Below, one piece after another: positions 972 to 21,807 of a DNA stretch of 64,000 nt. Origin of the DNA: Desulfobacteraceae bacterium (GTDB lineage: Bacteria > Desulfobacterota > Desulfobacteria > Desulfobacterales > JAABTS01); NCBI GenBank assembly GCA_011389735.1, contig JAABTS010000004.1, positions 3,245-67,244 on the forward strand, written 5' to 3'. Position numbers and translations under genes: made by a program. Each line of letters starts with the position of its first letter. The first letter of the stretch is position 1. Under the pieces are notes generated by a model. It saw only the letters and a list, made by a program, of their open reading frames with translations. It did not search any database and was not told the origin of the DNA.

Positions 972-1262
972 TATATGCTTCCGGAAACCAAATTTCACTG
1001 TGTCGCCGGCCCTGGATATACGAGTAGGGGCCTGGTTCTAAGTTCGGCCATAATTTTTCTGGTTGCTCCGGAGCGCCAAAGTCGGAGACTGCGCTTCGTA
1101 AGTCGCGGGTTACAAACCCGCTCAGAGCAAGAGACCCGCTCGGAGGGGGTTTGCAACCCCCGGCTTACTCCGGCGCTCTGGCCGATCTTAGAATCAAGCC
1201 CTACGAGTAGTATGATCCCGGGCCTGCCGCTTGGTGAAATTTAAATTCTGAAAACCTTTATA
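972..1262 (+). mobile_element. Family A MITE interrupted by a family B element
   Basis: A left half 972-1027 and right half 1202-1262 flank the B insertion. Confidence 0.8.
1028..1201 (+). mobile_element. Family B MITE (174 bp) with REP-like hairpin cargo
   Basis: TIRs GGGCCTGGTTCTAAGTTCGGCCA / TGGCCGATCTTAGAATCAAGCCC. Flanking direct repeat TACGAGTA(G) at 1019-1027 and 1202-1210. Near-identical to 6220-6393. Confidence 0.85.
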
Positions 1263-1402
1263 TTCGGTTACGGCCCGGCGTAAGGGGCGGACTCATTTAC
1301 ATGTTCGAAGGAAACGCATGTTGATTTTTTTCTGTTTTAATGTTTTATTCAGTCCTGTTGTTTTCTTGAGCTTGTAATCGTGCTACAGTTTTGCAGATAT
1401 TA

Positions 1403-1621
1403 TATAGATTTTCAAGCATCCTTCATAAACCCAGGAAAGTGGTTGACACTTTCCAAGTCGGGATCGGGATCGGGATCCCGATTTTGATGAAACTGTAAAC
1501 AAGAAATGAAGGATGCCCATTTTCAGGAATTAAATTTCACCAGGCGGGGCGCCCGAGATAACACTGTTCGTATGTCCCAGGCCGTCAACTCAGTGAAATT
1601 GAATTTCCGGAAGGCGATATA
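1403..1621 (-). mobile_element. Family A MITE whose terminal repeat is split by a family C element
   Basis: Removing 1415-1525 restores the A end TATAGATTTTCAGGAATTAAATTTCAC. Confidence 0.75.
1415..1517 (+). mobile_element. Family C MITE (short variant)
   Basis: TIR GCATCCTTCAT/ATGAAGGATGC. Flanks GATTTTCA / CATTTTCA (7 of 8 match). GGGATC hexamers inside. Confidence 0.75.
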
Positions 1622-1640
1622 ATCCACTTAGGAAAAGGAG

Positions 1641-2408
1641 ATGTACATGAAAGGAAGAAGAGCACCGCTGTTATACGTTATTCCCTTAATTCTGATTTCT
1701 CTGTGCGGTATTGCACACGCTGACGAAATAACACTGACGAGTTGCGACTGGGAACCCTACACGGGAGAAAATATGCCGGGCTATGGGTTCACCGCTGAAA
1801 TTATCGACAGAGCGATGAAACGGGTCGGCCATAAAGTGACCTTCGTATTTTATCCCTGGAAAAGAGCCGTGTACGAAACAAAAAAAGGCCGGGTTCACGG
1901 CGCGTTTTCCGCCTACCACAGCAAGGAGAGGGCCGAGACCTTCGCTTTGTCGGAACCTTACGCCTTCAGTCAGTTGATGCTGTGCGCCAAAAAGGGAAGG
2001 GAAGTCATCTATAATTCTATCGAGGATTTAAGGCCGTATCGAATCGGTGTGGTTGCAGGGTATGCGAATACAGCGGAAATTGACGGCGCGCATTATTTGA
2101 CAAAAGATGAAGCGCCGTCGGATCTGTTAAACATCAAAAAATTGCTGACGAACCGGGTTGACTTGATTGTAGTCGACCGCTATGTAGCCGTTTATCATGT
2201 TAAAAATTCCGCAGCCATTGAATACACTGTCAATGATATTGATTTTATTGAACCGCCGCTAAAAAAACAGCCCATCTATATCATGTTTTCCAGGGCCGTC
2301 CCCGGATATCAACGCTACGTAGCGGATTTCAACAAAGGGCTCGAGCTTGTGAAGGCGGACGGAAGTATCGGCAACATTATGGAAAAGTACGGATTTTTCA
2401 ATCAGTGA
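1641..2408 (+). CDS. Periplasmic substrate-binding protein (SBP family 3-like)
   Basis: Signal peptide, DWEPY...GF..EI, YPWKRA, GRV/NRVDL motifs. RBS AAGGAG. Confidence 0.85.
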   Translation: MYMKGRRAPLLYVIPLILISLCGIAHADEITLTSCDWEPYTGENMPGYGFTAEIIDRAMKRVGHKVTFVFYPWKRAVYETKKGRVHGAFSAYHSKERAETFALSEPYAFSQLMLCAKKGREVIYNSIEDLRPYRIGVVAGYANTAEIDGAHYLTKDEAPSDLLNIKKLLTNRVDLIVVDRYVAVYHVKNSAAIEYTVNDIDFIEPPLKKQPIYIMFSRAVPGYQRYVADFNKGLELVKADGSIGNIMEKYGFFNQ

Positions 2409-2556
2409 CGCCTGTAAACGCTCAAAACGTTTTAATCGCATACGTTATTGTTAACAGCGACCAGTTCGCTTTTCGCAAGGTTTTTAGAACATGGTAAAGG
2501 CTATAGCGGCCTGGCGGGCACGCCTGTCATTGCGAACATCAGGGGAGGGGCGGCAA

Positions 2557-3000
2557 ATGAAAGCGGCCGGGATAAACATTGCGGCGCTATCGGCGCTCTT
2601 GGTTTGTATCGGATGCGTCGGTCCGAATTTGTCGGCGGTGGAATGGATTCAGCGGGGCTCGGAATTCGAAAAGGAGGGCCGTTACGCCGCTGCGGCGAAA
2701 GCCTACACGAAGGCGTTGAACAAGGATCCCGGCGATGCGAACGTTTATATGTATCGCGGTTTGGTGTACACCATGCTCGGAAAATGGGAGCGGGGGATCG
2801 CGGATCTGACGACCGCTCTGAAAATCAAGCCGGACAGCGCCCTTTTTTATACCATACGGGGAATCATGCGATTCGACCACGGGGATTTTGAAAAGGCGGT
2901 TGAAGATGCGGAACAGGCGACCCGGCTAGATCCGGAAAGCTATAAAACGTTCCGCCGGGATATGGAAACCGAAATCCGTAAACTGAAGCATAAAAAATAA
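2557..3000 (+). CDS. TPR-repeat protein, probable lipoprotein
   Basis: Hydrophobic N-terminus with CIGC lipobox-like site. TPR motifs (AYTKAL..DP..ANVYMYRG). Confidence 0.75.
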   Translation: MKAAGINIAALSALLVCIGCVGPNLSAVEWIQRGSEFEKEGRYAAAAKAYTKALNKDPGDANVYMYRGLVYTMLGKWERGIADLTTALKIKPDSALFYTIRGIMRFDHGDFEKAVEDAEQATRLDPESYKTFRRDMETEIRKLKHKK

Positions 3001-3182
3001 GGGCTTGGTTCTATCTTCGGCCATTTCTTCTTGCATGAAAACTCTCACAGGGGCACAGAGGCACAGAGGCGCAAAGGTTAAAAAATTATTCATTGCGCCC
3101 CGGTGACTTTGTGAGATTTCTTTATTAAACAGCAAGCGGGCGTAGATTGGATATTCTAATGGCCGATCTTAGAACCAACCCC
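3001..3182 (+). mobile_element. Family B MITE with GGCACAGA octamer cargo
   Basis: TIRs GGGCTTGGTTCTATCTTCGGCCAT / ATGGCCGATCTTAGAACCAACCCC. Exact 8-bp duplication AAAAATAA at 2993-3000 and 3183-3190. Confidence 0.85.
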
Positions 3183-3244
3183 AAAAATAAAGCCGGCCCG
3201 ACCTGCAGGTTTTAAGAAATTTATTTTTTTCTGTAGAACCCGGA

Positions 3245-4270
3245 TCATTCAAAATATGGCTTCAACACGCCGGCGATATCTTCAGGATAAGCCATACAAA
3301 GCGTTTCATTGTACAAGTTTCTCAAAGCGCCGATATCCGGAGTTCCCAGGGCCGGATTGAAAAAGGTGCGAGGCGAAAAGAGAATATGAAAACGGGTGAA
3401 CTCATCTGTCTCGGCGCCGGTGAAAAAGTTCAGATTGAAGCTGTAGATTCCCATGTCGTCGTAAGCGGCCATCGCCCTGGTCAGGCCCAGGCCGATATCG
3501 AATAGATCCTGATTCGTCAGATCCAGGGTCGACGCCGCGCCTTCGACCACCCCCAGCACATCGCCCGCCACGCCGAACGGGGCATAGGCCGAAAGCCATG
3601 TGGTTCGTCCGGTTTTCCCGAGAAATCTCTCACCTGAATTTGTTTCCGATTGAATCAGATCTTCCCAGTAATTCGACCCGTTTTGATCTTGATACCGTTT
3701 TGCGGCGATGAGTTCTTCAACCATGATATTCGGAGCCGACGCAGATGAAAACACCTGCAAATGGGGATGGATCAGCGAGCTTCCGGACACCGGCATATAG
3801 TTCCAGTTAACGAGATAATACACCGCTTCGTGATGCTTCAAATCCCTCACCCGCCGAAAAAAGGACATCGCCAGGCTGAATCCCCGGCCGATTAAATCCG
3901 CCGTTATTTCAGTCATGGGGATGTAATGTCTCGCTCCCAGAGTCGCAACCGCACTAAGGCAGTCATACGGGGCGAGGTTAGGAAACAAAACCATGTCATC
4001 CAGTGTCAAACGGCCTTCAGGGATGATTTCCGGAGGAAAATGAGGCGTTACCTCAAAAATACGTTCCGCGCAAAATGGACAATTGGTTTCAGTTCCGGCC
4101 GTCATTTTTTCAAAATCGGGCTTGGGCCATGAAAGCTTCATGAAATGGCATATTCGAGCGGTTCTGCCGGTGAGCGGATCTTTCCGGATTTCACTCGGAA
4201 TTGACCGCCGCTCCATGTTTTTTAGCGGATTTAAAAGAACGGTTTCTTTTTTTAAAGCTTCGAATTCCAT
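3245..4270 (-). CDS. Galactose-1-phosphate uridylyltransferase-like (GalT/HIT superfamily) protein
   Basis: EIRKDPLTG, CPFC, FPNLAPY and SGSSLIHPHLQ motifs. Start moved to MEFEAL after RBS GGGAGG. Confidence 0.8.
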   Translation of the reverse strand: MEFEALKKETVLLNPLKNMERRSIPSEIRKDPLTGRTARICHFMKLSWPKPDFEKMTAGTETNCPFCAERIFEVTPHFPPEIIPEGRLTLDDMVLFPNLAPYDCLSAVATLGARHYIPMTEITADLIGRGFSLAMSFFRRVRDLKHHEAVYYLVNWNYMPVSGSSLIHPHLQVFSSASAPNIMVEELIAAKRYQDQNGSNYWEDLIQSETNSGERFLGKTGRTTWLSAYAPFGVAGDVLGVVEGAASTLDLTNQDLFDIGLGLTRAMAAYDDMGIYSFNLNFFTGAETDEFTRFHILFSPRTFFNPALGTPDIGALRNLYNETLCMAYPEDIAGVLKPYFE

Positions 4271-4309
4271 GACCCCTCCCCTTAAAATGTCCGACATCGG
4301 TTATAGCTA

Positions 4310-4410
4310 TAGCCTTCCGGAAATTGAATTTCCCTGCGTAATCGGCCCGGGATATCCGAATCGTATGATCCCGATTCGCCGCCTGGTGAAATTTAATCTC
4401 TGAAAACCTA
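4310..4410 (+). mobile_element. Family A MITE, complete short form (101 bp)
   Basis: TA|TAGCCTTCCGGAAATTGAATTTC...GTGAAATTTAATCTCTGAAAACCTA|TA. Confidence 0.85.
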
Positions 4411-4435
4411 TAGGAAAAATAATCTTCCGGGTCAA
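4407..4435 (-). promoter_or_regulatory. Putative sigma70 promoter for the galT-like gene; -10 formed by the MITE end
   Basis: Minus strand TTGACC-N17-TATAGG. Confidence 0.4.
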
Positions 4436-4494
4436 GACGGGATTGCAAATATTTCCAAAATTATGGATTAATATTCCAATTTTTTAACTTCGCC

Positions 4495-4523
4495 TTGAAA
4501 TTTGAGCGATCGTTCAATATGAT
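4495..4523 (+). promoter_or_regulatory. Sigma70 promoter of the acyl-CoA dehydrogenase gene with a palindromic operator in the spacer
   Basis: TTGAAA-N17-TATGAT. The spacer holds TTGAGCGATCGTTCAA (4502-4517), a TetR-like palindrome. Confidence 0.6.
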
Positions 4524-4556
4524 ATACTGGGTTTCGGATATCATGGGGGTTGGTTA

Positions 4557-4663
4557 TAGAGCCTTCCGGAAATCAAATTTCGCTGGGTTGTCGGCCTGGG
4601 ATATACGAAATTGTATTATCCAGGGCCGGCCGTATTGTGAAATTTCATTTCTGAAAGGCTATA
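4557..4663 (+). mobile_element. Family A MITE, short form
   Basis: GCCTTCCGGAAATCAAATTTC...GTGAAATTTCATTTCTGAAAGGCTATA. Confidence 0.8.
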
Positions 4664-4788
4664 GCGTTTGAACGAAAAGTCTTAAAATACGGCTCTGAGC
4701 GGGTGTTTGTAACCCGAGTGCCCCCTCTCGCGGCAAACGGGGATTGCAAATCCCCAGGGAGCGTGAGGAGGTTTTCGTTCAGCCGCAA
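4662..4788 (+). mobile_element. Family D element (TIR-bounded, REP-like hairpins inside)
   Basis: Ends GCGTTTGAACGAAAA / TTTTCGTTCAGCCGC. Core GCTCTGAGCGGG..TTTGTAACCCG...GGGGATTGCAAATCCCC is repeated at 8471, 26761 and partly at 11757 and 18784. Confidence 0.7.
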
Positions 4789-4823
4789 TATATCAATTAT
4801 CAATTCAATATTAAGGAGGTCGT

Positions 4824-6092
4824 ATGTACGATTTTTTGCTGACGCCGGAAGAAAGGGAATTGAAGAAAGAAGTGCGGAAATACGTTCGTGAGGAGATCAC
4901 TGGCGATTTTCTGAGAAAGATGGATAAAAACGAAATCATCTATCCGAATGAATTTGTTCAACGGCTTGCCGAATTGGGGTTGCGTGGAATACGGTTTCCC
5001 AAAAAATACGGCGGCCGGGAAATGAGCTGGGTCGCCGATGTGGCCGCCACCGAAGAAATCGGGTGTTTGGGGATGGCCTTGGGATGCGCGTTCGTGATGC
5101 CGTCCATTGTCGGAGAAGCATTGAACATGTTCGGAACCGAAGAACAAAAAGAAAAATATCTTGCGCCATACATCAAGGGCGAATTGATCGCCGCCGAAGC
5201 GCTGACCGAACCCCGCGGCGGTTCTGATTTTTTCGGGGCCATGACCAGAGCGGAACTCAAAGGCGACCACTTTGTGCTGAACGGTATGAAACGGTTTGTG
5301 GTGGGAGCTGAAGGGGCTGATTTTTTTCTGGTGTATTGCAGAACCAATTTGGATCCCGATGCGCACAAATACCAGCGGCTGAGTCTGCTGGTGGTGGAAC
5401 GGGGTCCCGGCGTGGAAACGGAATATCTGTATGGTCTCATGGGCTGCCGGGGGGGCGGCACTGGACGGCTGGTGTTTCGGAATGTGAAAGTTCCCAGGGA
5501 AAATCTGATCGGCGAACTACACGGAGGCGCTCTGTGTTTTCATCAGATGATGATCCCCGAGCGGCTTACATCGGCGGCCGGATGCCTCGGCGTATGGGGG
5601 GCTCTCGATCTGGCGGTTCGGTATTCCAACCAGAGACGAACATTCGGCAAGGAGATTCGCAATTACCAGGGAGTGAGTTTCAATGTGGCCGATTCCATCA
5701 CCCAGCTTGACGCAGCCCGGTCGATCACCTACATGGCGGCCCGGGCCGTGGATGAAAACTATTCCAATGTCCGAAGAATCGTCAGCGAGGCCAAACGGTT
5801 CGCCACGGAATCCGCATGGGAGGTAGTGAATAACGCCATGCAGATTATGGGAGGCATCGGCTATACGGATGTGTATCCTATAGAACGTTCTCTCCGGGAC
5901 ACCCGGCTGGGCATGATCTGGACGGGCACCAGCGAAATCATGAATCTCATGATTCAACACGAGTATTATAACGAAGTTCTCAGTCCGGCTTACGACCGCC
6001 GGAAAATGGAGGAGGACGCCATGAATCCGGATGAAAGCGAACGGTGCTACTCCGATGAAGACATGGAGAGGGTTTTTGGAGGCGAGCTGTAG
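4824..6092 (+). CDS. Acyl-CoA dehydrogenase
   Basis: ALTEPRGGSD, LNGMKRFV, R..FGKEI, AMQIMGGIGY, IWTGTSEI. RBS AAGGAGGT. Confidence 0.93.
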   Translation: MYDFLLTPEERELKKEVRKYVREEITGDFLRKMDKNEIIYPNEFVQRLAELGLRGIRFPKKYGGREMSWVADVAATEEIGCLGMALGCAFVMPSIVGEALNMFGTEEQKEKYLAPYIKGELIAAEALTEPRGGSDFFGAMTRAELKGDHFVLNGMKRFVVGAEGADFFLVYCRTNLDPDAHKYQRLSLLVVERGPGVETEYLYGLMGCRGGGTGRLVFRNVKVPRENLIGELHGGALCFHQMMIPERLTSAAGCLGVWGALDLAVRYSNQRRTFGKEIRNYQGVSFNVADSITQLDAARSITYMAARAVDENYSNVRRIVSEAKRFATESAWEVVNNAMQIMGGIGYTDVYPIERSLRDTRLGMIWTGTSEIMNLMIQHEYYNEVLSPAYDRRKMEEDAMNPDESERCYSDEDMERVFGGEL

Positions 6093-6097
6093 GAAGA

Positions 6098-6576
6098 CCG
6101 CTTTTCATAAATTAATTTCACAAAGCGGCCGGCCCGGGATCATTCTATAGCTTTTCAGATAATTAATTTCACTGCGTTGTCGGCGCGGGGATATACGAAT
6201 TTTATTATGTTGAATGTTGGGGCTTGGTTCTAATTTCGGCCATAATTTCTCGGGTTGCTCCGGAGCGCCAAAGCCGGAGACTGCGCTTCGTAAGTCGCGG
6301 GTTACAAACCCGCTCAGAGCAAGAGACCCGCTCAGAGGGGGTTTGCAACCCCCGGCTTACCCTGGCGCTCTGGCCGATCTTAGAATCAAGCCCGAATGTT
6401 GAATGTGAATTTCCCCCATTTAGCATTTAACATTTAGCATTCAACATAAATAATTTAGCATTGAACACAAAATTCAACAATTTCGGGCCTGCCGCCTTAT
6501 GAAATTTAATTCCTGAAAAACTATATTCTTGTATCCCGGGCCGGCGACACGCTGAAATTAAATTATCTGAAAGGCC
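6098..6576. mobile_element. Triple-nested MITE: A(-) contains long A(+) 6148-6523, which contains B 6220-6393
   Basis: Inner A is flanked by TA (6146-47, 6524-25). B is flanked by GAATGTTG (6212-19, 6394-6401). The outer halves rejoin into a short A. Confidence 0.85.
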
Positions 6577-6592
6577 GGAGGTTTCTCGAAAT

Positions 6593-6883
6593 TCAAATTT
6601 GAGATAGCCGGTCCGCAATTCTGATAGCGAAAACCTTTACCGGTTCGGGTCCGAAATGAGGATGCGTTATGGTTTTGACGGTATAACCGGCCCAGGGTTT
6701 GATCAAGGTTTTAGACATGTCTCCTGTGGACGGATATCCGCATAAGAGGTGGATTTCATCGTACTCCCGGCTCAACCGTTTTTCCCAATACGGCTTTACC
6801 AAACGGTATTCTTCGGTTTTTTCACCGTTCCGGATTTGATCGAAATATTCTTTTTTCAAGTTGAGCCGGAGTATCCTTTTCAT
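6593..6883 (-). CDS. ASCH/PUA-domain protein
   Basis: L.LKKEYFDQIRNGEKTEEYR carries the ASCH GxKxxExR motif. Confidence 0.85.
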   Translation of the reverse strand: MKRILRLNLKKEYFDQIRNGEKTEEYRLVKPYWEKRLSREYDEIHLLCGYPSTGDMSKTLIKPWAGYTVKTITHPHFGPEPVKVFAIRIADRLSQI

Positions 6884-6942
6884 ATGATTTTCTGATTTTC
6901 GCGTTATCATTTTTCAGCAATTCGGATTTCTTGATCTCTAAC

Positions 6943-7132
6943 TACAGGTTTTCAGATATTACATTTCAGAAGGCTCGAGGGAGGAGATAATAGGCATCTT
7001 TCATAAATGCTGATAAATAGTTTACACTTCCCAAATAGGTATGGGTATCGAATTATTACGATCCCGATCCCGATCCCGATCCCGATTTTGATGAAACTGT
7101 AAACAAGAAATGAAGGATGCCGGAAGACTATA
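6943..7132. mobile_element. A' remnant with family C element (6993-7121, 129 bp)
   Basis: C TIRs GGCATCTTTCAT / ATGAAGGATGCC, near-identical to 45682-45810. Left flank is half an A'; right flank is only the A tip GGAAGACTATA. Confidence 0.8.
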
Positions 7133-7175
7133 TAAATACGGATTTTATAGTCCAGGGGCAAAGAGGTTATATAAA

Positions 7176-7727
7176 ATGGAAGGCCACCACCTGATATTGG
7201 GGGAACTCACCGATTTTCTAACCGGAAAAACCCTGATCGACACTCATGACGAACGTTTGCGGCAGGAGATATCCCGTTTGCTGGTTGAAGCCAAAGGATA
7301 CGGCAAACATGAGATTCAAAGCGCCTGCGAACTCGTTGTTCGTGCGGGAGGCAAACGGGCCGTCACGCCTGTTGCATTTATTATCGAAATCGAGGAAAAG
7401 GTCCGAATGATCATCAAGTACGGGCCGGGATCGCTTGTTACGCGCAGGCGGCCTTCACTGGCGGCGTCCCGGCTGTTCAAGCGATATCAAATTCCGGTCG
7501 TGGTTGTGACCAACGGGGTGGACGCCGAGATTTTGGACGGTGAAAACGGAGCCTTGCTGTTCGAAGGATTGGACAATATTCCGGCCAGGGAAAAGCTGAT
7601 AGAAATGACGGCCGCCGCATCATATGAAACCATCGATGAAAAAAGGGCTGAAAAAGAATCCGGAATTGTATTCGCTTATGAAATCGACGGCGCCTGTCCC
7701 TGCGATGACACTGTTTGCAGGTTATAA
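7176..7727 (+). CDS. Stand-alone type I restriction enzyme HsdR N-terminal-like domain protein
   Basis: DFLTG...DTHDER.RQ...L...KGY and VVVTNG..AE motifs; C-terminal CPCDDTVC. Confidence 0.6.
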   Translation: MEGHHLILGELTDFLTGKTLIDTHDERLRQEISRLLVEAKGYGKHEIQSACELVVRAGGKRAVTPVAFIIEIEEKVRMIIKYGPGSLVTRRRPSLAASRLFKRYQIPVVVVTNGVDAEILDGENGALLFEGLDNIPAREKLIEMTAAASYETIDEKRAEKESGIVFAYEIDGACPCDDTVCRL

Positions 7728-7790
7728 ACGGCCATTCACAAAGCCCCTGGGATAGAGCGCCTGATTAAAATGAAACGGTATTGAGACGAA

Positions 7791-9467: not shown

Positions 9468-9672
9468 TTTTTTAGAAATCTAATTTCACAAGGCGGCGGG
9501 CCCGGGATTGTTGCATTTTGTGTTGAATGATGAATTATTTATGTTGAATGCTAAATGTTAAATGCTAAATGAGGGGCGCTCACATTCAACATTCAACATT
9601 CAACATTCAACATAATATAATTCTTATATCCCCGGGCCGACAAAGCAGTGAAATTAATTATCTGAAAAGCTA
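9465..9672 (-). mobile_element. Family A MITE, long form with heptamer repeats
   Basis: Both A TIRs; (TTCAACA)4 and TGCTAAA/TGTTAAA heptamers. The terminal TAG doubles as the stop codon of the upstream CDS. Confidence 0.8.
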
Positions 9673-11736: not shown

Positions 11737-11756
11737 TACTGCAAATGTTGAAACCA

Positions 11757-11937
11757 CTGTTCTGAGCGGGTTTGCTCACCACAAGGTTAAAGGTTACAGG
11801 GTGCAGGCTTTTTCATAATTATGGTTCTAACCTGCCCCCCTTATCGGGATCGGGATCGGGATCGAAATTGAATCCTTCGATAACGATCCCGATCCCGATC
11901 CCGATCCAAATGAACCTGCCCCCTGCCCCCTTTAACC
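11757..11937. repeat. Composite repeat: D fragment, heptamer-type palindrome E, and GATCCC hairpin module
   Basis: GGTTAAAGG...CAGGGTGCAGG is inverted to CCTGCCCCCTGCCCCCTTTAACC. The hexamer hairpin 11841-11912 is bracketed by AACCTGCCCCC direct repeats. Confidence 0.7.
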
Positions 11938-14250: not shown

Positions 14251-14364
14251 ATGACCTCCTGTTCCCATAGGTAAAAAATTAATGGCCGGCCGTAATCTCC
14301 GCTTGCCACAAAATATCGGACACAATATCCATCCAGGGTTCGTGAAATGAAGCCTGTTTGATTT

Positions 14365-14604: not shown

Positions 14605-14668
14605 CTGTTGTTTCCGTTTCCCCTTTAATTGTATGCTTCCCGGCCCGCCGGCTCGTAAAACCAAATTT

Positions 14669-15325
14669 CTAAAAACCCTGTAATTGTATCGCCTGATCCG
14701 TCAACAGCGATTTGAAACGGTCCAGGGTTATCGGATACGGTTGAATCGGAATTCCCATCCAGTCGGAATATTCGAGGAATTCCTCCGGTTTTTCAGCCAT
14801 GCATTGATCCACATATCCGATTCCGTCCAGAACAACTGCGCCGCCGGTGTGACGGGGGAAATTCTCATTGGCGATTCCTTTGTCCCATCCTTTGAATACG
14901 TCCTCCCGAAATTCGATCCAGCCGGGCGTCATCCACCAGACCTTTTCGCCTCCGGCCACTTCCATGCCGATTTTTTCCCGTTCCGCCTCATCGGCGAGCA
15001 TATCCATACAATGCGTGGCCTGAATCCGGCACACCCCGGGCCCCTCTTCCTCGATGATGTTTTGCATGACTCGAGTGGGTTCATTCACATTGACATAACA
15101 GTATTTCCCGCCATACACGACAATGACTTTGCCGGTTTTTTCCTTCGCTTTACGGATACTCTTTACAAGCCTCCGCTCCAGTTCAGGGATGTCCTGATGA
15201 AGTCCCGGTTTTGTGTAAAATATGCTGTGCGCGTCCAAAAAGCCTTCCTTTTTCAAATAATTCAGCTCAAGACTCATTGTCCCGCAGGCAACGATAGCGA
15301 TGTCCGAAAACGTTACAGTGTCCAT
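14669..15325 (-). CDS. DUF1638-domain protein
   Basis: IVACG, PGLH, VVYG..C, HCMDML, WMTPGW motifs; typical RACo neighbour. Confidence 0.8.
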   Translation of the reverse strand: MDTVTFSDIAIVACGTMSLELNYLKKEGFLDAHSIFYTKPGLHQDIPELERRLVKSIRKAKEKTGKVIVVYGGKYCYVNVNEPTRVMQNIIEEEGPGVCRIQATHCMDMLADEAEREKIGMEVAGGEKVWWMTPGWIEFREDVFKGWDKGIANENFPRHTGGAVVLDGIGYVDQCMAEKPEEFLEYSDWMGIPIQPYPITLDRFKSLLTDQAIQLQGF

Positions 15326-15436
15326 GTGAATTCCTCCTTGAAATCCCGATACGAATGAATTGCGCTGCAGGCCGGATTCAAATTCTTCCCGGCGATTTGA
15401 AACGCGCCCCGGTTCAGCTCATAACGCTTCATGAAA

Positions 15437-15453
15437 AGCAAGATCGGCGCCGA
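15437..15453 (-). promoter_or_regulatory. Sigma54 (-24/-12) promoter for the DUF1638-TusA-RACo operon
   Basis: Minus strand TCGGCGCCGATCTTGCT = GG-N10-GC with TTGC. Confidence 0.7.
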
Positions 15454-15589
15454 TTTGAAACGGAAATTTTTGTTTCAAGGTTGGTAAAACGAAATATCTT
15501 ATTTTAACAGATATTTAATATGGCCAGGAAATGCAAATGGATAAAAAAAGATAGAGGAAAGTATTTCCACATTGTGTTTTACATGTTCA

Positions 15590-15632
15590 AATGTTAATTT
15601 GATGAACACATCATATGTTTATTTTTTGAACA
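15590..15632. promoter_or_regulatory. Putative tandem upstream activator sites for the adjacent bEBP
   Basis: TGTTAATTTGATGAACA and TGTTTATTTTTTGAACA, about 140-180 bp upstream of the sigma54 site. Confidence 0.5.
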
Positions 15633-15645
15633 CAAAGGGAGAAGA

Positions 15646-17061
15646 ATGGATCATCATAACCTTAACACCTACTGGAAAACGGTTGTGGATACAATCCAGG
15701 ACGGCGTCATGATCGTTAACCCTCAAGGCGCGATTATTTCGGTCAATCGTGGTTTTGAGGAAATCACCGGTTATAAGCGCGGGGAAGTTTTGGGTAAATC
15801 CTGTTCAATTTTGAAATGCAATTCCTGTGAGTTTGTTCGGAATGCGTCGGAATGTCATTATTGCGTTATGTTCAAGCAGGGAACGCTCAACAAACAGCAA
15901 TGTGTTGTAACTCACAGGGACGGCCGCGCGGTACACATCGTGAAAAATGCATCTGTATTGAAAAACGACGACGGTGAAATTTTCGGCGCCGTGGAGACCA
16001 TGACCGATGTTACGGATCTGGTCGAGAAGGAGACCCAGATTAAAATCTACCGGCAAGAATTGGGAGCCGAAGATCGATTTTACGGGATGATCGGCGTGTC
16101 GGAGAAAATGCGGCGGGTGTTTGAACTGATATCCAATGCGTCCCGGTCTGAAGCGCCGGTGATTATTTACGGGGAAAGCGGTACGGGCAAGGAACTCGTG
16201 GCCCGGGCGATTCATGAAATCAGCCTGCGGAAAAAAGGGCCGTATATTAAGGTGAATTGCGCCGCTTTAAACGAATCACTTCTGGAAAGCGAGCTTTTCG
16301 GGCATGTCAAGGGTGCGTTTACTGGAGCGCACCGGGATCGAGAAGGCCGTTTTCAGTCCGCCCACGAAGGAGACATTTTTTTGGATGAAATCGGCGATCT
16401 GCCGATATCGACTCAGGTGAAACTGCTTCGGGTTCTGGAAGACAAAGTTGTGGAACGGGTGGGAGACAATACGCCGATTCGTGTGGATGCGCGTATTATT
16501 TCCGCCACCAACCGTAACCTCCCGGAATTGATCGACCAGGGCCGGTACCGGGAGGATTTTTTCTACCGCATCAATGTCATCCCGATCCAGGCGCCGCCGC
16601 TCAGGGAAAGGACAGAAGACATTCCCGTCCTGATCCGGTCGTTCTTTAACCGGACGCGGCTTTCCAGCGGGCGAAGCCAAATTGAAAGTATTTCCAACGA
16701 AGCTCTGGAAATCCTGACCCATTATCACTGGCCGGGGAATATCCGGGAACTGAAAAGCGCATTTGAATTCGCTTTCGTAGCCTGCCGTGGGAACACGATC
16801 ACGCCTGAACATTTGCCTTTCAATATCACGACAGGCGACAAACCCCTCAGACGGGACATCGCCATATCCAGGAATCTGGATGAAATCAAAAAGCAACGGC
16901 TAATCCAGGCTATGGAATCGACCGGCGGCAATCAATCCCGGGCTGCCCGACAACTTGGCCTTTCACGAACCAGCGTGTGGAATCAAATGAAACGTTTCAA
17001 TTTGAATGCCGGGCAATTCAAACCAAAACCGGATACCGGAGGCGGAATGATCCGGAATTAA
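15646..17061 (+). CDS. Sigma54-dependent transcriptional activator (PAS-AAA+-Fis HTH)
   Basis: GESGTGKE, ESELFGHVKGAFTGA, FLDEIG, WPGNIREL, GGNQSRAARQLG. Confidence 0.95.
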   Translation: MDHHNLNTYWKTVVDTIQDGVMIVNPQGAIISVNRGFEEITGYKRGEVLGKSCSILKCNSCEFVRNASECHYCVMFKQGTLNKQQCVVTHRDGRAVHIVKNASVLKNDDGEIFGAVETMTDVTDLVEKETQIKIYRQELGAEDRFYGMIGVSEKMRRVFELISNASRSEAPVIIYGESGTGKELVARAIHEISLRKKGPYIKVNCAALNESLLESELFGHVKGAFTGAHRDREGRFQSAHEGDIFLDEIGDLPISTQVKLLRVLEDKVVERVGDNTPIRVDARIISATNRNLPELIDQGRYREDFFYRINVIPIQAPPLRERTEDIPVLIRSFFNRTRLSSGRSQIESISNEALEILTHYHWPGNIRELKSAFEFAFVACRGNTITPEHLPFNITTGDKPLRRDIAISRNLDEIKKQRLIQAMESTGGNQSRAARQLGLSRTSVWNQMKRFNLNAGQFKPKPDTGGGMIRN

Positions 17062-17519
17062 AATTCCTTTGCAGCTTCCTTGAATGATTTTTGCAATGAA
17101 TTATAGCTCTTTAAAAAACCACTTTTCACATCTTCCCAGGCTTTGGCGGAACTATGCCGGATACCGCCATACCATTCGGCCAGTTCATTACGCTGCTTGC
17201 GAATTTTTTTTAACGTTTTTGTTGCATTTTTTCGTGCGGCTTCGTCCATTTCGCTCCATTTCCGGTCGATTCGGCTTTCCAGCCGCTCGATATTCGCATC
17301 CAGTTCTTCGATCACCGCTTTTACATCTTTCACGGTTTCCCGGCGCTGTTCAGCGGAATATTTTTTTATGGCCTCAAGAGCCTCCTTTGTTTCCTGCTTG
17401 ACTTCTTCGAAATTAGTATTCCGTTGGTCCGCGAAAACAGACGCTCCAATAAAGAAAAGAATCAGCGATACAATGGCCGCTGGAACGATAAAAAAACGAT
17501 GTTGCGAATCAAAAGTCAT
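17058..17519 (-). CDS. Exported alpha-helical hypothetical protein
   Basis: Signal peptide; coiled coil ending SAKAWEDVKSGF; RBS AGGAGA. Confidence 0.7.
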   Translation of the reverse strand: MTFDSQHRFFIVPAAIVSLILFFIGASVFADQRNTNFEEVKQETKEALEAIKKYSAEQRRETVKDVKAVIEELDANIERLESRIDRKWSEMDEAARKNATKTLKKIRKQRNELAEWYGGIRHSSAKAWEDVKSGFLKSYNSLQKSFKEAAKEF

Positions 17520-17541
17520 GTTGTCTCCTTTCTGAAATCTT

Positions 17542-17636
17542 AATGTTGAATGTGAGTCCCCCCATTTAGCAATCGACACAAAATGCAACGATCCCGGGCC
17601 GGCAACCTGTTGAGATTTAATTTTCAGAGGACAATA
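17542..17636 (+). mobile_element. Partial long family A element (right half)
   Basis: TGTTGAATGTGAGTCCCCCCATTTAGCA...CCCGGGCC...GAGATTTAATTTTCAG. Confidence 0.6.
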
Positions 17637-17650
17637 TCCATATTTTTTAA

Positions 17651-18041
17651 GGGCCTGGTTCTATCTTCGGCCATTTTCATTTATCGGGATCGGGTTCGAA
17701 ACTGAATCCTTCGATAACGATCCCGATCCCGATCCCGATCCCGATCCCGATTTGGATTCAAAAACTTCAAGCCCAATCACTAAACTGATGGCTGAAGTTA
17801 TAGCTTTTCAGATAATTAATTTCATTTCGTTGTCGGCCCGGGGATATACGAATTTTATTATGTTGGATGTTGGATGTTGAATGTTGGATGTGAGTCCCCC
17901 CATTTAGCATTTAACATTTAGCATTCAACATAAATAATTTAGCATTCAACATAAATAATTTAGCATTGAACACATAATTCAACAATCCAGCGCCCGCCGC
18001 CTTATGAAATTTAATTCCTGAAAAGCTATAGAACCAATACC
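17651..18041 (+). mobile_element. Family B MITE with GATCCC cargo; right TIR interrupted by long family A (17801-18028)
   Basis: 8-bp duplication TTTTTTAA (17643-50, 18042-49). GAAGT-TA-[A]-TA-GAACC restores the B TIR. Confidence 0.88.
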
Positions 18042-18065
18042 TTTTTTAATCCTATCAATCCGATA

Positions 18066-18569
18066 TTAATTGGTCCGGGAAGTGTTGATTTCTTCAAACG
18101 CCGCCTGGATCGCCTTTTCATCTTCATGGCTGAGAGATGTTTGAATAACTTTGCCTTTATACCGGCTCAGTTCTTCGAGGACTTTATCCGTAGGCGCTTT
18201 TCGCACCAGGATAAACAAGGCGGATGTCCCGGGCTGAAGCGTTTCGGACAATTCTTTCATGAACCGGTCGTCTATGCCGACGTCGGACAGAGTTCCGGCT
18301 ACGGCTCCGGCCGCGGCTCCGGCCGCTGCGCCTACTAAAGGACTCATGAAAATAAGTCCGATCAATGTTCCCCAGAATGTTCCGGCGATTGTTCCCTGAG
18401 CGGTAAGGTGATGCATTTGATTGAGCTTCACCTTGCCGTCCTCATTTTTTACGGCTACAACCGCATCCTCCAAATCCACCATATATGTACGTTGCATCTG
18501 AATCAGTTCCACTTTTACCATTTCAGCCTCGTTCGGATCGTCAAATCCGATTACGATCAAATCACTCAT
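18066..18569 (-). CDS. DUF1269-domain membrane protein
   Basis: MSDLIVIGF, LEDAVV, G.FWG.LIG, DVGIDDRF, LQPGTSALF, TSLS. Confidence 0.88.
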   Translation of the reverse strand: MSDLIVIGFDDPNEAEMVKVELIQMQRTYMVDLEDAVVAVKNEDGKVKLNQMHHLTAQGTIAGTFWGTLIGLIFMSPLVGAAAGAAAGAVAGTLSDVGIDDRFMKELSETLQPGTSALFILVRKAPTDKVLEELSRYKGKVIQTSLSHEDEKAIQAAFEEINTSRTN

Positions 18570-18931
18570 TGAATTTTTCCTTTCTTTGTTTGTCGATGAT
18601 TCGAAACCCTATCGCCGTCGCAGTTTTTTTCATATACGCATTTCCCAGTATATGGTTCAGGGGATATATGTATTCCCCGGCGTTTAACCGTTTTTACGTT
18701 TTAATCGATCGCGGTTATCCTTGGCGGCTGAGTCATGGTTGACTAATATCGGCGATTATGACAGATATGGCTTTTCAGGTAATCAGTGCTTGAACGAAAA
18801 ACCGCAAAGTATGGCTCTGATCGGGTTTATAACTGGTCTGGTCAAGCTTTTGTGTCGCAGGCGTAAGAGCTTTCCGGCGTGGAAACGCCGGACGGCGTAA
18901 ATAAGACTGAAACCGATTATGGAGATTTAAA

Positions 18932-20305
18932 ATGCAAAATGCAATGGACACCGTTCAAAAACAACGTGAATTTTTTTTGACCCATACGACAAAAGACGTA
19001 TCGTTTAGAAAAAGGAATCTTGAAAAGCTGTTGGATGGTGTTACAAGGTATGAATCTAAAATTTTTGACGCGCTCCATGCGGATCTTCACAAGCACAAGT
19101 TTGAGGCGTATGGAACCGAAATCGGGATGGTTCGCGAGGAGCTGAAGTATCAAATCAAGCACATCGGAAAATTCGCCCGTCCAAAGCGGGTAATGACAGA
19201 CCTGCTTAATTTCCCCGGTTCCGGCCGGATATACCCTCAGCCGTATGGCGTGGTGTTGATTATTGCGCCCTGGAATTACCCTTTCCAGCTCCTTATGAAT
19301 CCACTTATCGGGGCCGTAGCCGCCGGAAATTGCGCCGTTTTGAAACCCGCCGGGTATTCCGGGCGCACAAGCGCGGTTATTCAAGAATTGATCAGAGAAT
19401 GCTTTGATGACAAATATATCGCTGTATTCACCGGCGGCCGGGAAGTGAACCAAATGCTTCTTGAAGAGCGGTATGACGCTGTTTTTTTTACCGGCTCCCC
19501 GTCGTTAGGAAAAATCGTGATGGAAAAAGCCGCCCGCCATGTAACTCCGGTGATCCTTGAACTGGGCGGCAAAAGCCCTTGTATTGTCGATTACGACGCC
19601 GATATCGACGTTTCCGCGCGACGAATCGTATTCGGCAAATTTCTTAACGCAGGCCAGACATGTATCGCTCCCGACTATTGTTTTGCTCATAAAACGATCA
19701 AAACCGAATTGCTGGAAAAAATGAAGGCGTATATCAAGGAGTTCTATTCCGATGATCCAGGGAGCAGCGAACATTACGGACGAATCATCAATGCGCGGCG
19801 TTTTGAAACCCTTTCCGATCTGATGAAATGTGGGACGGTTTATACCGGAGGCGGAAAGGACGCACGGTCGCTGTACATAGAACCCACTATTCTGACGAAC
19901 ATCGCGCCTGAAGATCGGATCATGCAAGAGGAAATTTTCGGACCGATTCTTCCTGTAATGGAATTTGAACAGCTCGACGACGTGATAAAATTTATCAACG
20001 AACGCGAACGACCTCTGGCGCTCTATTATTTCTCCAAAAGCAGAGGCAGGCGGGATAAGGTCATCGATCAAACGACGGCAGGCGGCGGTTGTATCAACGA
20101 CACCATGATGCATCTGAGCAACCCGTCGCTTCCATTCGGCGGCGTCGGGCTCAGCGGCATGGGCAGGTATCACGGCAAATACAGTTTCGAAGCCTTCAGC
20201 CATTATCGTTCGGTGCTTATAAAACCGTTTTACGGTGATAACCCGATCAGGTACGCTCCCTATCGCGATTCATGGTTGGCCGTTTTGAAAAAAATTTTCG
20301 GTTGA
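18932..20305 (+). CDS. Aldehyde dehydrogenase (ALDH3-like)
   Basis: PWNYP, FTGS, LELGGKSP, NAGQTC, EEIFGP, PFGGVG.SG. Confidence 0.95.
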   Translation: MQNAMDTVQKQREFFLTHTTKDVSFRKRNLEKLLDGVTRYESKIFDALHADLHKHKFEAYGTEIGMVREELKYQIKHIGKFARPKRVMTDLLNFPGSGRIYPQPYGVVLIIAPWNYPFQLLMNPLIGAVAAGNCAVLKPAGYSGRTSAVIQELIRECFDDKYIAVFTGGREVNQMLLEERYDAVFFTGSPSLGKIVMEKAARHVTPVILELGGKSPCIVDYDADIDVSARRIVFGKFLNAGQTCIAPDYCFAHKTIKTELLEKMKAYIKEFYSDDPGSSEHYGRIINARRFETLSDLMKCGTVYTGGGKDARSLYIEPTILTNIAPEDRIMQEEIFGPILPVMEFEQLDDVIKFINERERPLALYYFSKSRGRRDKVIDQTTAGGGCINDTMMHLSNPSLPFGGVGLSGMGRYHGKYSFEAFSHYRSVLIKPFYGDNPIRYAPYRDSWLAVLKKIFG

Positions 20306-20390
20306 AGCCGACGGATTGTTCGGTGTGAATCGTTGAAGGGGATGGTTTCCCGGAATTTTTTTTAGATGCTATTATAACGGTAAATCCGGT

Positions 20391-21320
20391 TTATTCGTAT
20401 ATGACCTGATTGCCGCCCGCTTTTTTGGCGCTTTCGACCAGGGCGAGGGTTTTCAATATCAGTTCGGCTACTTCTTCGTCGCAATGGCTGCCGATCCCAC
20501 CGGATACGGTGATTTCCAATTCTTTGGGATAACGGTTGCTCCGTTCGATCATGGTTTTGATCCGTTGAGCTGTGATCATCGCATTGCGGCCTTTCGTGTT
20601 CGGCATGATCGCCAGAAACGTTTCCGTATTGTATCTGCCGATGATATCGACTTCTCTGAGTTCCTTTATAATGGTGTTCGCTGTTTTGGCGACAACTTCA
20701 TCGCTGATTTCGTGGCCGTAGAGGTCCGTGATGGTTTTTAGGTGGTCAACCTCGAAGAGAATAATGGACAGATCTTTTGCATACCGGGATGCTTCGGCGA
20801 TTTCTTCGGTCAGACGTTCGATAATATAATTCCGGCTGAAAAGTTCGGTCAGGGGATCGATTATCGAAACCCGTTCCAGTTCTTTTGACAGAATATTCTT
20901 TTCGCGTATCAGTTTCAGAAAATTGAGGTGATTGGCGAGTTTGGCCGAAAGTTCCGAAAATACGGCGGGTTTCATTATGTAATCAGCGGCTCCGTTTTTG
21001 AAAAGGGTTTCAATCGTATCGGCGTCGAATTCCGGTATCATAAAGAGAACCGGAATATTCTTCGACCCCGCTATGGATTTGAAACGTTCGCATAGATTGA
21101 CGCCTTCCAGGCCGGAAATGTTCATATCGGAGATGATTAGATCCGGAACGGCGTTATCCATTGCCGCGACCAGCTCATTCCCATTCCCGGCGAACGCAAC
21201 CAGGTAGTTGTTTTTTTTAAGGATATTGCTTAACTGGCGCAGGTTCGCCGGATCTCCGTCCACAATTAGAACAAGTGGTGGATCGGGTGTTTCGCTTTCG
21301 TAACAATTCATTGTAACCAT
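20391..21320 (-). CDS. Response regulator with degenerate GGDEF domain
   Basis: REC domain, DPLT linker, YGH; the GGDEF site reads GRYNTETF. Confidence 0.85.
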   Translation of the reverse strand: MVTMNCYESETPDPPLVLIVDGDPANLRQLSNILKKNNYLVAFAGNGNELVAAMDNAVPDLIISDMNISGLEGVNLCERFKSIAGSKNIPVLFMIPEFDADTIETLFKNGAADYIMKPAVFSELSAKLANHLNFLKLIREKNILSKELERVSIIDPLTELFSRNYIIERLTEEIAEASRYAKDLSIILFEVDHLKTITDLYGHEISDEVVAKTANTIIKELREVDIIGRYNTETFLAIMPNTKGRNAMITAQRIKTMIERSNRYPKELEITVSGGIGSHCDEEVAELILKTLALVESAKKAGGNQVIYE

Positions 21321-21576
21321 TCTTCCGCCTTTTAACGTGTTTATATACGGATTTGATCGTCAGTACAATAATTTCATATATATTCCATTTTTTCAAGAAT
21401 GAAATCAATGGGGGAAATCGGTAAATGATCGAATCGGTTGTTGAAAAAATGGCGGGTCTTATCTGATTTTTAATGAATCCCGTGTGTTAAGGTGGGAAAT
21501 AATAATAATGGTTGACTCTGATTGAAAGAACGACTAATTTGAGAGGGGAGTTCCGGGGAACGTTCACGTAATGATC

Positions 21577-21744
21577 GGGATTGATTCTAACTTCGGCCAT
21601 TTTCATTTATCGGTATCAGTATCGCTATCGCTATCGGGATCGGGATCGGGATCGGGATCGAGATCGGGATCGGAATCGACCTTGAATCCTCCGATCCCGA
21701 TCCCGATTTGGATGCTTCGATTGGCCGAAGATAGAACCAGGCCG
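21577..21744. mobile_element. Family B MITE with GGGATC/GATCCC hexamer cargo
   Basis: TIRs GGGATTGATTCTAACTTCGGCCA / TGGCCGAAGATAGAACCAGGCC. Duplication TAATGATC at 21569-76 and 21745-52. Confidence 0.85.
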
Positions 21745-21807
21745 TAATGATCCGGCGCGAGGTGGTTCCAGGAGCAATACCTGAAAAGGAAATCGATAGG
21801 TGATCGG

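Follow-up and report, generated by a model that had tools for sequence, protein, structure and literature searches.

Ds1, in combination with Ac, is a MITE that is cross-mobilised through common ends alone. Among bacterial insertion sequences, an 8-bp TSD and GG-initial TIRs are found in the ISL3 family, whose members have a size near 1.9 kb, and an 8-bp TSD with GG ends is equally a property of IS1 and IS1595. REPINs are not known to have TIRs or TSDs.

For the Stowaway elements, conserved ends with diverse cores have been described in non-autonomous elements (PMC12595863). The repeats analysed in this study, Family B, resemble Stowaway (Tc1/mariner transposases) in being short, non-coding and multicopy, in having both TIRs and TSDs, in their similarity to an autonomous element at the ends only, and in the presence of unrelated cores within a single end type. 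They differ from it by their bacterial host, their 8-bp TSD, a putative partner that carries DUF6399 and is not an annotated transposase, and cores that are largely local modules. For TIMEs, conserved IRs, diverse cores, mosaic or hybrid derivatives and mobilisation in trans have been described, with 38-40 bp IRs of Tn3 type and 5-bp duplications (PMC4133298). Family B shares with TIMEs the conserved IRs, the diverse cores and the mosaics, but has 23-bp ends and 8-bp duplications, and no composite gene capture was seen in it. Finally, one of its cores (type 0) is made of paired REP-like hairpins and is in this respect similar to REPINs, whereas the shell, with its TIRs and TSDs, is unlike the REPIN/RAYT system; the genome has nine Y1_Tnp matches, and only two of these nine Y1 genes have the REP-like hairpin motif within 900 bp.

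The earlier note on this DNA had put Family B forward as a candidate for an undescribed system. This part of its proposal is improbable. The association of conserved ends with diverse cores is already described in TIMEs and Stowaway. Family B is instructive yet ordinary selfish DNA, and no new category of mobile element is required. Its members are probably non-autonomous MITEs that have the ends of a DUF6399-encoding IS, are mobilised in trans and carry mosaic cores assembled locally.

Family B in the window and in the genome

In the window, that is, the whole 64-kb stretch of DNA analysed, the TIR pattern has nine matches with up to 3 mismatches (1028+/1179-, 3001+/3160-, 6220+/6371-, 17651+ and 21577+/21722-), against none across 100 shuffles. 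The five elements with common ~23-bp TIRs of the earlier claim are all present. Each element is flanked by an 8-bp duplication of its own, that of the first possibly being 9 bp, and the interiors are of three unrelated types, two further points on which the sequence agrees with what had been claimed. All five copies are intergenic, and they measure 168-182 bp, apart from one of 391 bp with a nested insert. No strand is assigned to any of the features given below.

Elements 1 and 3 are of type 0, with a REP-like hairpin core. The first (1028..1201, 174 bp, core folding z -5.0) has its TIRs at 1028-1050 and 1179-1201 and its TSD, TACGAGTA(G), at 1019-1027 and 1202-1210; the latter is 8 bp long if the extra G at 1027 is counted with the TIR, and 9 bp long otherwise. 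It sits within a short copy of another repeat, Family A, at 972..1262 (approximate ends). Element 3 (6220..6393, 174 bp, core folding z -6.6; TSD GAATGTTG at 6212-6219 and 6394-6401) is also hosted by a Family A copy, which extends from about 6148 to 6523 with TA on both flanks, and the site of its insertion is uninterrupted in the Family A paralogue at 17801-18028. Element 2 (3001..3182, 182 bp; TSD AAAAATAA at 2993-3000 and 3183-3190) is of type 3, with a core of CACAGAGG octamers, and starts directly after the stop codon of the ORF at 2491-3000.

The last two elements are of type 1, with a core made of a GGGATC/GATCCC hexamer hairpin. Element 5 occupies 21577..21744 (168 bp; TSD TAATGATC at 21569-21576 and 21745-21752). 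The right TIR of element 4 is interrupted by a Family A MITE of 228 bp (17801..18028, ends TAGCTTTTCAG...CTGAAAAGCTA), with its TA target at 17799-17800 and 18029-18030, and for this reason the pattern missed it. This TIR is thus in two parts, at 17789-17800 and 18031-18041, and the element extends over 17651..18041 (391 bp with the insert; TSD TTTTTTAA at 17643-17650 and 18042-18049). The assembled contigs of the sequencing runs, which break at repeats, gave no empty-site or polymorphism evidence. An 11-letter loose end at 17800 in these contigs resembles the uninterrupted right TIR of element 4, but any paralogue could be the source.

Throughout the genome, 502 TIR matches were found with up to 4 mismatches. 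They form 163 adjacent +/- pairs, 153 of which span no more than 300 bp and correspond to complete Family B elements of 73-279 bp, devoid of coding capacity. The duplication of 8 bp is exact in 64/153 and has at most 1 mismatch in 83/153; an exact 9-bp TSD is seen in 15/153, and the remaining lengths tested gave 0-1. When the flanks were shifted by 3, 10 or 20 bp, no exact TSD was obtained (0/152). The genome-wide enrichment of TSDs, the lack of which had been named beforehand as a reason to abandon the proposal, is thus clearly observed. The target is AT-rich, with 8 bp, sometimes 9, duplicated. The TIR, of 22-23 bp, is composed of the block GGGCTTGgTTCTA, three variable bases and the block TCGGCC(A), and conservation over 302 ends from 151 elements is at least 0.9, falling to ~0.45 past position 23. 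A 17-nt core pattern has 202 exact matches in this genome, versus none in 40 genomes of the same order.

By their ends, TSDs, copy numbers and core types, the Family B elements are MITEs. Indeed, they are small and non-coding, are bounded by TIRs and a TSD of fixed length, occur in high copy number, and have ends in common with an autonomous element that encodes a putative transposase, an IS located in another genome. Moreover, two unrelated cores have been recently mobile: at unrelated loci, three copies of type 1 share 99.3-100% identity although the perfect TSD of each is different, and the 26 pairs of Family B elements that are at least 98% identical include a type-0 subgroup.

DUF6399 insertion sequences with Family B ends

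The full-length IS in question was found in a Desulfamplus MAG (L032/L035). It spans 1847 bp (L032:3051-4897), is flanked by the 8-bp TSD AAAAAAAA, and has the TIRs of Family B, one of them with 23/23 identity: its right TIR is that of element 2 of the window (3160-3182). Its single ORF encodes a protein of 562 aa, annotated only as hypothetical, with HTH matches in the N-terminal part and a match to DUF6399 (E 9e-43). The MAG carries 12 copies of this IS with 97-100% identity, 10 of which are full-length and without stops. A related element (L077), with a transposase of 51% identity, has the TIR GGGCTTGGTCATAACATCGGCCA, and another one, of 1916 bp, is found on a Ca. Thiodictyon plasmid with related TIRs and the exact 8-bp TSD GTCCAACC. 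The family has a size of 1.85-1.92 kb and one gene, whose product has a DDE-type core between an HTH at the N-terminus and DUF6399 at the C-terminus. It is seen in Desulfobacterota and one purple sulfur bacterium, and weaker homologues on cyanobacterial plasmids, with 24-25% identity, are candidate members.

We infer that the DUF6399 protein is the enzyme that would mobilise Family B. The IS family, with its 23-bp ends and its TSD of 8 bp, would then owe its transposase to this Pfam domain, for which a likely function is thereby proposed. Such a transposase presumably reads the ends only, and any DNA placed between two correctly oriented Family B ends could be moved in trans. Because the ends alone are presumably needed, several unrelated cores may amplify together, side by side in the same genome.

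The core of the DUF6399 protein contains the motifs DETF...SD...DxFH...VEGRN, and all of 17 sequences, with identities as low as 22%, have D163, E164, T165, F166, D217, D237, F239, H240, E488, G489, R490 and N491. A weak rve match was obtained for 9 of 16 members. None of the Pfam or NCBIfam IS models passes for this protein, no HMM assigns it to a transposase family, and a PDB profile search returned no sequence relative. More than 2800 DUF6399 database proteins are labelled hypothetical, and the only RefSeq name is "DUF6399 domain-containing protein". Our literature searches found no article naming DUF6399 and none on MITEs in Desulfobacterales, and 12-nt words of the TIR retrieved only 3 chance matches to primers.

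A similar layout is that of ISL3. The DUF6399 IS shares with this family the 8-bp TSD, GG-initial TIRs, a size near 1.9 kb and the order and spacing of the motifs, D-E-T ... D ... DxFH ... (L/V)EGxN, the ISL3 invariants of parallel spacing being D162, E163, D219, D240, H243, E368 and N371. It differs by the ~250 residues that separate the second D from the E and by the DUF6399 C-terminus. Furthermore, neither PF01610 (DDE_Tnp_ISL3) nor the NCBIfam ISL3 model (transpos_ISL3) matched any of the 22 proteins scanned (E<=1 or E<=0.5), and hhalign of the DUF6399 protein against ISL3 gave a probability of 0.56% and an E of 0.1, with only the SD...DxFH stretch aligned. In a language-model atlas, clusters bearing ISL3/IS256 adjoin DUF6399 clusters, an observation that we take as a lead only.

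Origin of the cores

Clustering of the 153 elements separated their interiors into 19 core groups, and at least 10 cores are mutually unrelated. Exact 8-bp TSDs are found in each of the six largest types (34/68, 15/26, 3/17, 2/9, 4/5 and 2/5 for types 0 to 5, respectively), which agrees with the claim that each cargo type moved as a unit. The cargo was also said to derive from other repeat classes, and its motifs indeed exist outside the shells: 209 of the 262 GGGATC arrays of the genome lie outside Family B, as do 131 of the 210 exact REP-like hairpin motifs, and the REP-like hairpins of the type-0 core are also present as a free-standing doublet repeat. Many of the external GGGATC arrays belong to a second MITE family, Family D, which has its own 8-bp TSD (exact in 76/120) and GGGATC arrays in 84 of 124 copies. 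The hexamer module is not restricted to Family B, since the Family D MITE at 1416..1518 of the window (TIR GGCATCCTTCAT.../...ATGAAGGATGCC) carries a GGGATC x3 module.

Chimeric Family B elements were found, which combine type 4 with type 1, type 0 with type 2, or one half of type 0 with one half of type 8. Family B elements abut Family A in 18 of 153 cases, versus 2.85 expected (maximum of 10 in 200 simulations), and the nesting is reciprocal, with B inside A (elements 1 and 3) and A inside B (element 4). Among 49 MITEs with Family B ends from other genomes, none has a core in common with this genome. As other repeat families of this genome contain the modules too, the cores are local mosaics and are not inherited with the ends. 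The mosaic evolution of the cores is real, and with at least 10 cores for one end type, reciprocal nesting and shared modules, Family B constitutes a compact natural data set on the origin of MITE cores. Most cores in this genome are long hairpins made of such modules (GGGATC arrays, REP-like hairpins, CnCAGAG octamers), and new ones may arise by recombination or by template switching (abortive gap repair) among these densely nested hairpin repeats.

A more ambitious version of this explanation, which we consider unlikely although worth keeping in mind, is that DUF6399 defines an uncatalogued cross-phylum IS family of ISL3-like layout, the 23-bp shell of which would be universal, with hairpin and tandem-repeat modules passing in this genome among at least two 8-bp-TSD MITE superfamilies (B and D) and free-standing REP-like repeats by a specific hairpin-driven template switching. 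If this were true, modules would really be captured by such a mechanism, in the course of transposition or gap repair, and the mosaics would not be coincidental nested junk.

The earlier note went in another direction, and saw in Family B a dedicated modular system, of an undescribed kind, whose shells actively capture and spread other selfish repeat classes. Several of the above results would fit, namely the modules found identical inside and outside the shells and again in a second shell family, the chimeras, the nesting of Family B with other repeats above chance, and the genome-specific cores. However, an internal TIR remnant is kept in just 2 of the 153 elements, nested composites never exceeded a single copy, a hairpin signal is lacking in types 4, 5, 11, 13, 15 and 16, and the precedents of TIMEs and Stowaway make a special system unneeded. 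We thus hold dedicated capture to be improbable: the shells, the unrelated cores moved as units and the shared modules stand, but not the capture itself. The small number of internal remnants also weakly disfavours capture by two-MITE composites as the source of new cores. Hairpin or short-tandem cores were considered as a family-wide trait and rejected, as external cores have z < -2 in 16/47 cases and exact tandems in 4/47.

Under the preferred reading, mosaic MITEs mobilised in trans, the partner could be sought in the genome of the window itself. No intact IS with exact Family B TIRs is present in the 477-contig assembly, which speaks against this reading. When TIR pairs with up to 7 mismatches and a spacing of 600-4000 bp were collected, 14 candidates for a full-length IS were obtained; all of them lacked a TSD, the best having 3 mismatches, as well as a transposase-like ORF. 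Unpaired or large-pair ends lead into known MITE cores in 180 of 196 cases; of the other 16 ends, 15 were inspected, with ordinary genes alongside, and one is 300 bp from a Y1-like ORF. The sole intact DUF6399 homologue of the genome (C333) has 41% identity and divergent TIRs, which deviate at positions 10-14, well conserved in Family B, and of a closer homologue only 72 residues, interrupted by a stop, remain. PF00872 (IS256) has no match in the genome, and PF01609 matches three fragments at contig ends, which are bounded by unrelated ends. When 7622 ORFs were clustered by k-mers, 43 small clusters resulted, of which only the largest (9 copies) was Pfam-scanned; its weak AAA_14 match led us to reject it as a transposase.

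A partner once resident, and since diverged or lost from the assembly, leads to another explanation, in which all cores would be ordinary internal-deletion derivatives of such cognate ISs, consisting of their subterminal or non-coding DNA. The C333-type IS does yield MITEs of this kind: those at C356 and C367, of 144-145 bp, consist of its right subterminal ~115 bp, with a repeated TTTCGGCCA at the junction. In addition, TGGCCGAAAT and a hairpin resembling type 2 come after a transposase remnant (C421), and in types 0 and 3 the left and right TIRs differ as they do in the IS. However, the similarity of every core type to the TIR-identical IS stops after 22-26 bp. The interiors are thus not recognisable as products of deletion from this IS, and the alignment to one ancestral IS that would have refuted the modular proposal was not obtained. 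Moreover, at least 10 unrelated cores would require as many parental ISs, the core modules are common to repeats other than Family B, and, by eye only, two complete small MITE pairs (L037 and L060) of the genome with 12 IS copies are unmatched to the IS. We give a general origin by internal deletion a slim chance.

Host selection and other transposases

The ends and hairpins could also be maintained by host selection, as terminators or regulatory RNAs, in domesticated elements that are no longer active transposons. The intergenic location of all five window copies and the strong folding of their cores go in this direction, as do 131-bp elements with near-perfect TIRs in Electrothrix, Desulfuromusa and Omnitrophota MAGs, whose 8-bp flanks differ in 8/8 of those listed (4-8 mismatches), the right flanks often being T-rich. 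Nevertheless, in the genome of the window about half of the copies have intact TSDs, and copies with 99-100% identity are found at unrelated sites. The absence of Rfam matches between 900 and 22000 of the window, and of an excess of terminator-like sites near elements 1 and 2, also counts against domestication, which we judge very unlikely. In the region 900-3400, promoter- and terminator-like sites are not above shuffles.

Mobilisation by an IS1- or IS1595-type transposase, the assignment made in the earlier note, has next to no chance of being correct, as the features that suggested it, a TSD of 8 bp and ends starting with GG, are unspecific to those families, PF12762 and PF03400 have no match in the genome although both models match control genomes, and the sole gene-bearing elements found with Family B ends encode DUF6399 proteins.

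Families A, B and D together likely add to the fragmentation of the 6.5-Mb assembly: among the 176 unpaired ends of Family B, 45 point towards a contig end at a distance below 200 bp.

Family B elements in the window and across the genome

The five Family B elements that the earlier note had read in the window, each bounded by the ~23-bp TIR and flanked by its own duplication, are all confirmed from the sequence; the observation is real and was well described. At three mismatches or fewer, the TIR pattern has nine matches in the window and none in 100 shuffles. The target-site duplication (TSD) of el1 (1028-1201) is TACGAGTA, possibly extended to 9 bp (TACGAGTAG) because of an additional G at 1027. 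Those of el2 (3001-3182), el3 (6220-6393), el4 (17651-18041) and el5 (21577-21744) are AAAAATAA, GAATGTTG, TTTTTTAA and TAATGATC, respectively. The pattern missed the right TIR of el4, since it is interrupted at a TA by a 228-bp element (17801-18028) of Family A, a second MITE family. All five elements lie between ORFs.

The window belongs to contig C341 of a 6.52-Mb assembly in 477 contigs, which holds 502 Family B TIR matches (four mismatches or fewer) and 163 adjacent +/- pairs; 153 of these span 73-279 bp and the remaining ten exceed 1 kb. When the TSDs were tabulated genome-wide, as the earlier note had proposed, the 8-bp flanks of the small elements were exact in 64/153 cases and within one mismatch in 83/153, against 0/152 for control flanks displaced by 3, 10 or 20 bp. 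Exact 9-bp flanks were found in 15/153, and lengths of 4-7, 10 and 11 bp gave 0 or 1. The target sites are AT-rich (~NAAWWTTN). Among the unpaired ends, 45 of 176 point to a contig end closer than 200 bp, and the assembly is therefore frequently broken within Family B repeats. Over 302 ends, the majority of positions 1-13 and 17-22 are conserved at 0.9 or above, and conservation collapses to ~0.45 beyond position 23; the common shell is thus exactly the TIR and nothing more.

Core types, their mobility and their origin

Clustering at a coverage of at least 70% sorts the interiors into 19 groups. Type 0, with REP-like hairpins, has 68 copies, el1 and el3 among them; type 1, the GGGATC/GATCCC hairpin, has 26, including el5, and is matched by el4; type 2, a CACCGCAGAG hairpin, has 17; and type 3, made of CACAGAGG octamers, has nine, including el2. 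The others form seven groups, each with 2-5 copies, and eight singletons, among which three are chimeras of other types. The proposal that each cargo type has moved as a unit holds for every major type, since exact 8-bp TSDs occur in each of types 0 to 5 (34/68, 15/26, 3/17, 2/9, 4/5 and 2/5, respectively). Three type-1 copies at unrelated loci are 99.3-100% identical, each with a perfect TSD of its own, and 26 element pairs are at least 98% identical, a type-0 subgroup included. Two unrelated cores have therefore been mobile recently.

The interiors are not recognisable as simple deletion derivatives of the TIR-identical IS described below: similarity to it stops after 22-26 bp for each core type. 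There is further evidence that the cores were put together locally. Of 49 Family-B-ended MITEs from other genomes, none has a core in common with the source genome. The modules themselves recur outside the shells: 209 of the 262 GGGATC arrays in the genome lie away from Family B ends, many of them in Family D, the third of the MITE families (ends GGCATCCTTCAT; 405 end matches; 124 pairs of 88-180 bp). Family D has an 8-bp TSD, exact in 76/120, and is represented in the window at 1416-1518; GGGATC arrays are found in 84 of its 124 copies, and hexamer hairpins of GGGATC or GGTATC are present in the majority. Likewise, 131 of 210 exact occurrences of the REP-like hairpin motif are not in the shells but in a double-hairpin repeat that stands free, and the type-0 core gives 177 HSPs distant from Family B ends, mostly of 75 bp or less. 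This free-standing repeat (GGGGATTTGCAATCCCC ... GCGGGTTACAAACCCGCTCAGAGC, for example C26:12240-12360) has its hairpins in common with the type-0 core.

Family A is abundant (677 BLAST HSPs genome-wide), with ends TAGCTTTTCAG...CTGAAAAGCTA, insertion at TA and short-repeat arrays of AATGTTG and TTTAGCATT; its nesting with Family B is reciprocal. In the window it is found at 17801-18028, about 6148-6523, about 972-1262 and 17560-17636; el1 and el3 are nested in Family A copies, and one Family A copy in el4. Genome-wide, 18/153 Family B elements adjoin Family A, versus 2.85 expected.

The earlier note had inferred a modular system in which the shells capture other selfish repeats. The module sharing is now clearly documented among MITE families of one genome, which is a gain in itself, but there is evidence against a dedicated capture process: an internal TIR remnant is kept in only 2/153 elements, no nested composite was found in more than one copy, and several core types are without any hairpin signal, the external cores folding just modestly. 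As for the REP-like hairpins, the genome has nine Y1_Tnp (IS200/RAYT-like) matches, with such a hairpin within 900 bp of two. Family B is probably a set of ordinary trans-mobilised MITEs rather than a new system. Comparable cases are described for TIMEs, mosaic non-autonomous derivatives with conserved ends over diverse cores (PMC4133298), for Stowaway MITEs, which resemble the autonomous element at their ends only and are cross-mobilised (PMC12595863), and in a 2024 census reporting mobilisation by transposases with the TIR alone in common (PMC11602168).

An IS with Family B ends and its DUF6399 protein

No gene enclosed by a pair of Family B ends, and hence no full-length copy with a transposase gene, was found in the source genome. 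Domain searches there gave no match to IS1595, ISL3, IS256 or IS1, and three unrelated fragments for PF01609. The earlier suggestion of an IS1/IS1595-type enzyme was wrong: both domains are without a match, and the IS whose TIRs do match encodes a DUF6399 protein.

A 17-nt core pattern occurs 202 times in the source genome and in none of 40 genomes of the same order. Scanning a species-genome collection for Family B ends gave at least 69 loci; among the matches listed, the majority come from Desulfobacterales, Desulfamplus and Electrothrix MAGs. Two of the listed loci, in a Desulfamplus sp. MAG, hold an 1847-bp element with ends GGGGTTGGTTCTAAATTCGGCCA and GGGGTTGGTTCTAAGATCGGCCA, an exact TSD (AAAAAAAA) around one copy, and a single ORF of 562 aa. 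Its right end matches the right TIR of el2 at 23/23 positions. This MAG has 12 copies at 97-100% identity, ten of them full-length and uninterrupted. Relatives also favour an IS: a protein 51% identical, in an element with ends GGGCTTGGTCATAACATCGGCCA (L077); a clade of 26-31%-identical proteins with element ends GGCTACCCACCTAAGCCGGGACA; a copy of 1916 bp on the Ca. Thiodictyon syntrophicum plasmid pTs417, which has ends of 23 bp and is flanked by an exact 8-bp TSD (GTCCAACC); and homologues patchily distributed over 17/301 genomes of the order. In three further genomes whose MITEs have Family B ends (76, 10 and 4 pattern matches), the query from the Desulfamplus element found no homologue.

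Pfam places DUF6399 at residues 414-558 of the 562-aa protein (E 9e-43), with N-terminal HTH matches; an rve match is sub-threshold and recurs in 9/16 relatives. NCBIfam IS models gave no match, the best being IS481 at E 0.034. The more than 2800 database relatives (~559 aa), many on ~2-kb contigs, are labelled hypothetical or DUF6399, as are the RefSeq plasmid annotations. Seventeen sequences, down to 22% identity, are invariant at D163-E164-T165-F166, D217, D237-x-F239-H240 and E488-G489-R490-N491; six ISL3 transposases from related genomes are invariant at D162-E163, D219, D240..H243 and E368..N371. The first three motifs agree in order and spacing (54 versus 57 residues in ISL3, and 20 versus 21), which suggests that the protein acts in the manner of an ISL3-type DDE transposase, but hhalign aligns only the SD...DxFH stretch (probability 0.56%), and we therefore do not place it in the ISL3 family. 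The other gain of this analysis is a probable function for DUF6399, as transposase in an IS family that is ISL3-like and unannotated. A literature search found no paper that names DUF6399 or the Family B end sequences.

The source genome itself carries a 1922-bp element of this type (C333:893-2814), whose 537-aa ORF (557-aa open frame) shares 41% identity with the Desulfamplus protein. Its 25-nt ends (GGCGTTGATCATCGTTTCGGCCATT and GGCCTTGATCATCGTTTCGGCCATT) have GG..TTG and TTTCGGCCA in common with Family B and depart from it at positions 10-14, where MITE positions 10-13 are conserved at 0.92 or more. Its own MITEs (C356, C367; 144-145 bp) are plain deletion derivatives with the junction at a repeated TTTCGGCCA. 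A second, opposite-orientation TIR copy (C333, locus L073, 2821-2846; 26 nt, 92% complementary) starts six bases past the right end of the IS; it is probably a neighbouring MITE of the same subfamily, which would explain why the IS is without a matching TSD. Contig C421 retains a remnant of 72 residues, 68% identical to the Desulfamplus protein and with a stop inside; after it come TGGCCGAAAT and a type-2-like hairpin. Given the divergent C333 ends and only this remnant, the near-identical Family B copies would have been made by one of three sources: an unassembled enzyme, a recently lost one, or the C333 protein, if it accepts imperfect ends.

Family B ends in other lineages and further repeats

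Among the matches listed, Family B ends are also seen on contigs from bins assigned to Promethearchaeota, Methanophagaceae, Gammaproteobacteria, Methylomonas, Parabeggiatoa and Omnitrophota (L016, L063, L023, L014, L018, L020, L049, L064), at some with an exact 8-bp TSD (L018, L023); either horizontal spread or mis-binning may account for them. Elements of 131 bp with near-perfect ends occur on Electrothrix, Desulfuromusa and Omnitrophota MAG contigs (L004, L019, L024, L038, L049, L052, L064, L065). Their 8-bp flanks do not match (4-8 mismatches), and the right one is frequently T-rich; these ends may have been kept for a cause other than recent transposition.

Among the long ORFs of the source genome, C374:3012-5039 is repeated most often, making nine copies of up to 676 aa with its eight paralogues; its sole match, to AAA_14, is weak (E 5.7e-4, below the cut-off). 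Contig depth, summed over four metagenome runs, has 20- to 200-fold peaks at window positions ~4600-4760, 6950-7100, 9500-9640 and 11750-11850, which points to additional high-copy repeats in the window; Family A and Family B copies show like peaks in these runs.
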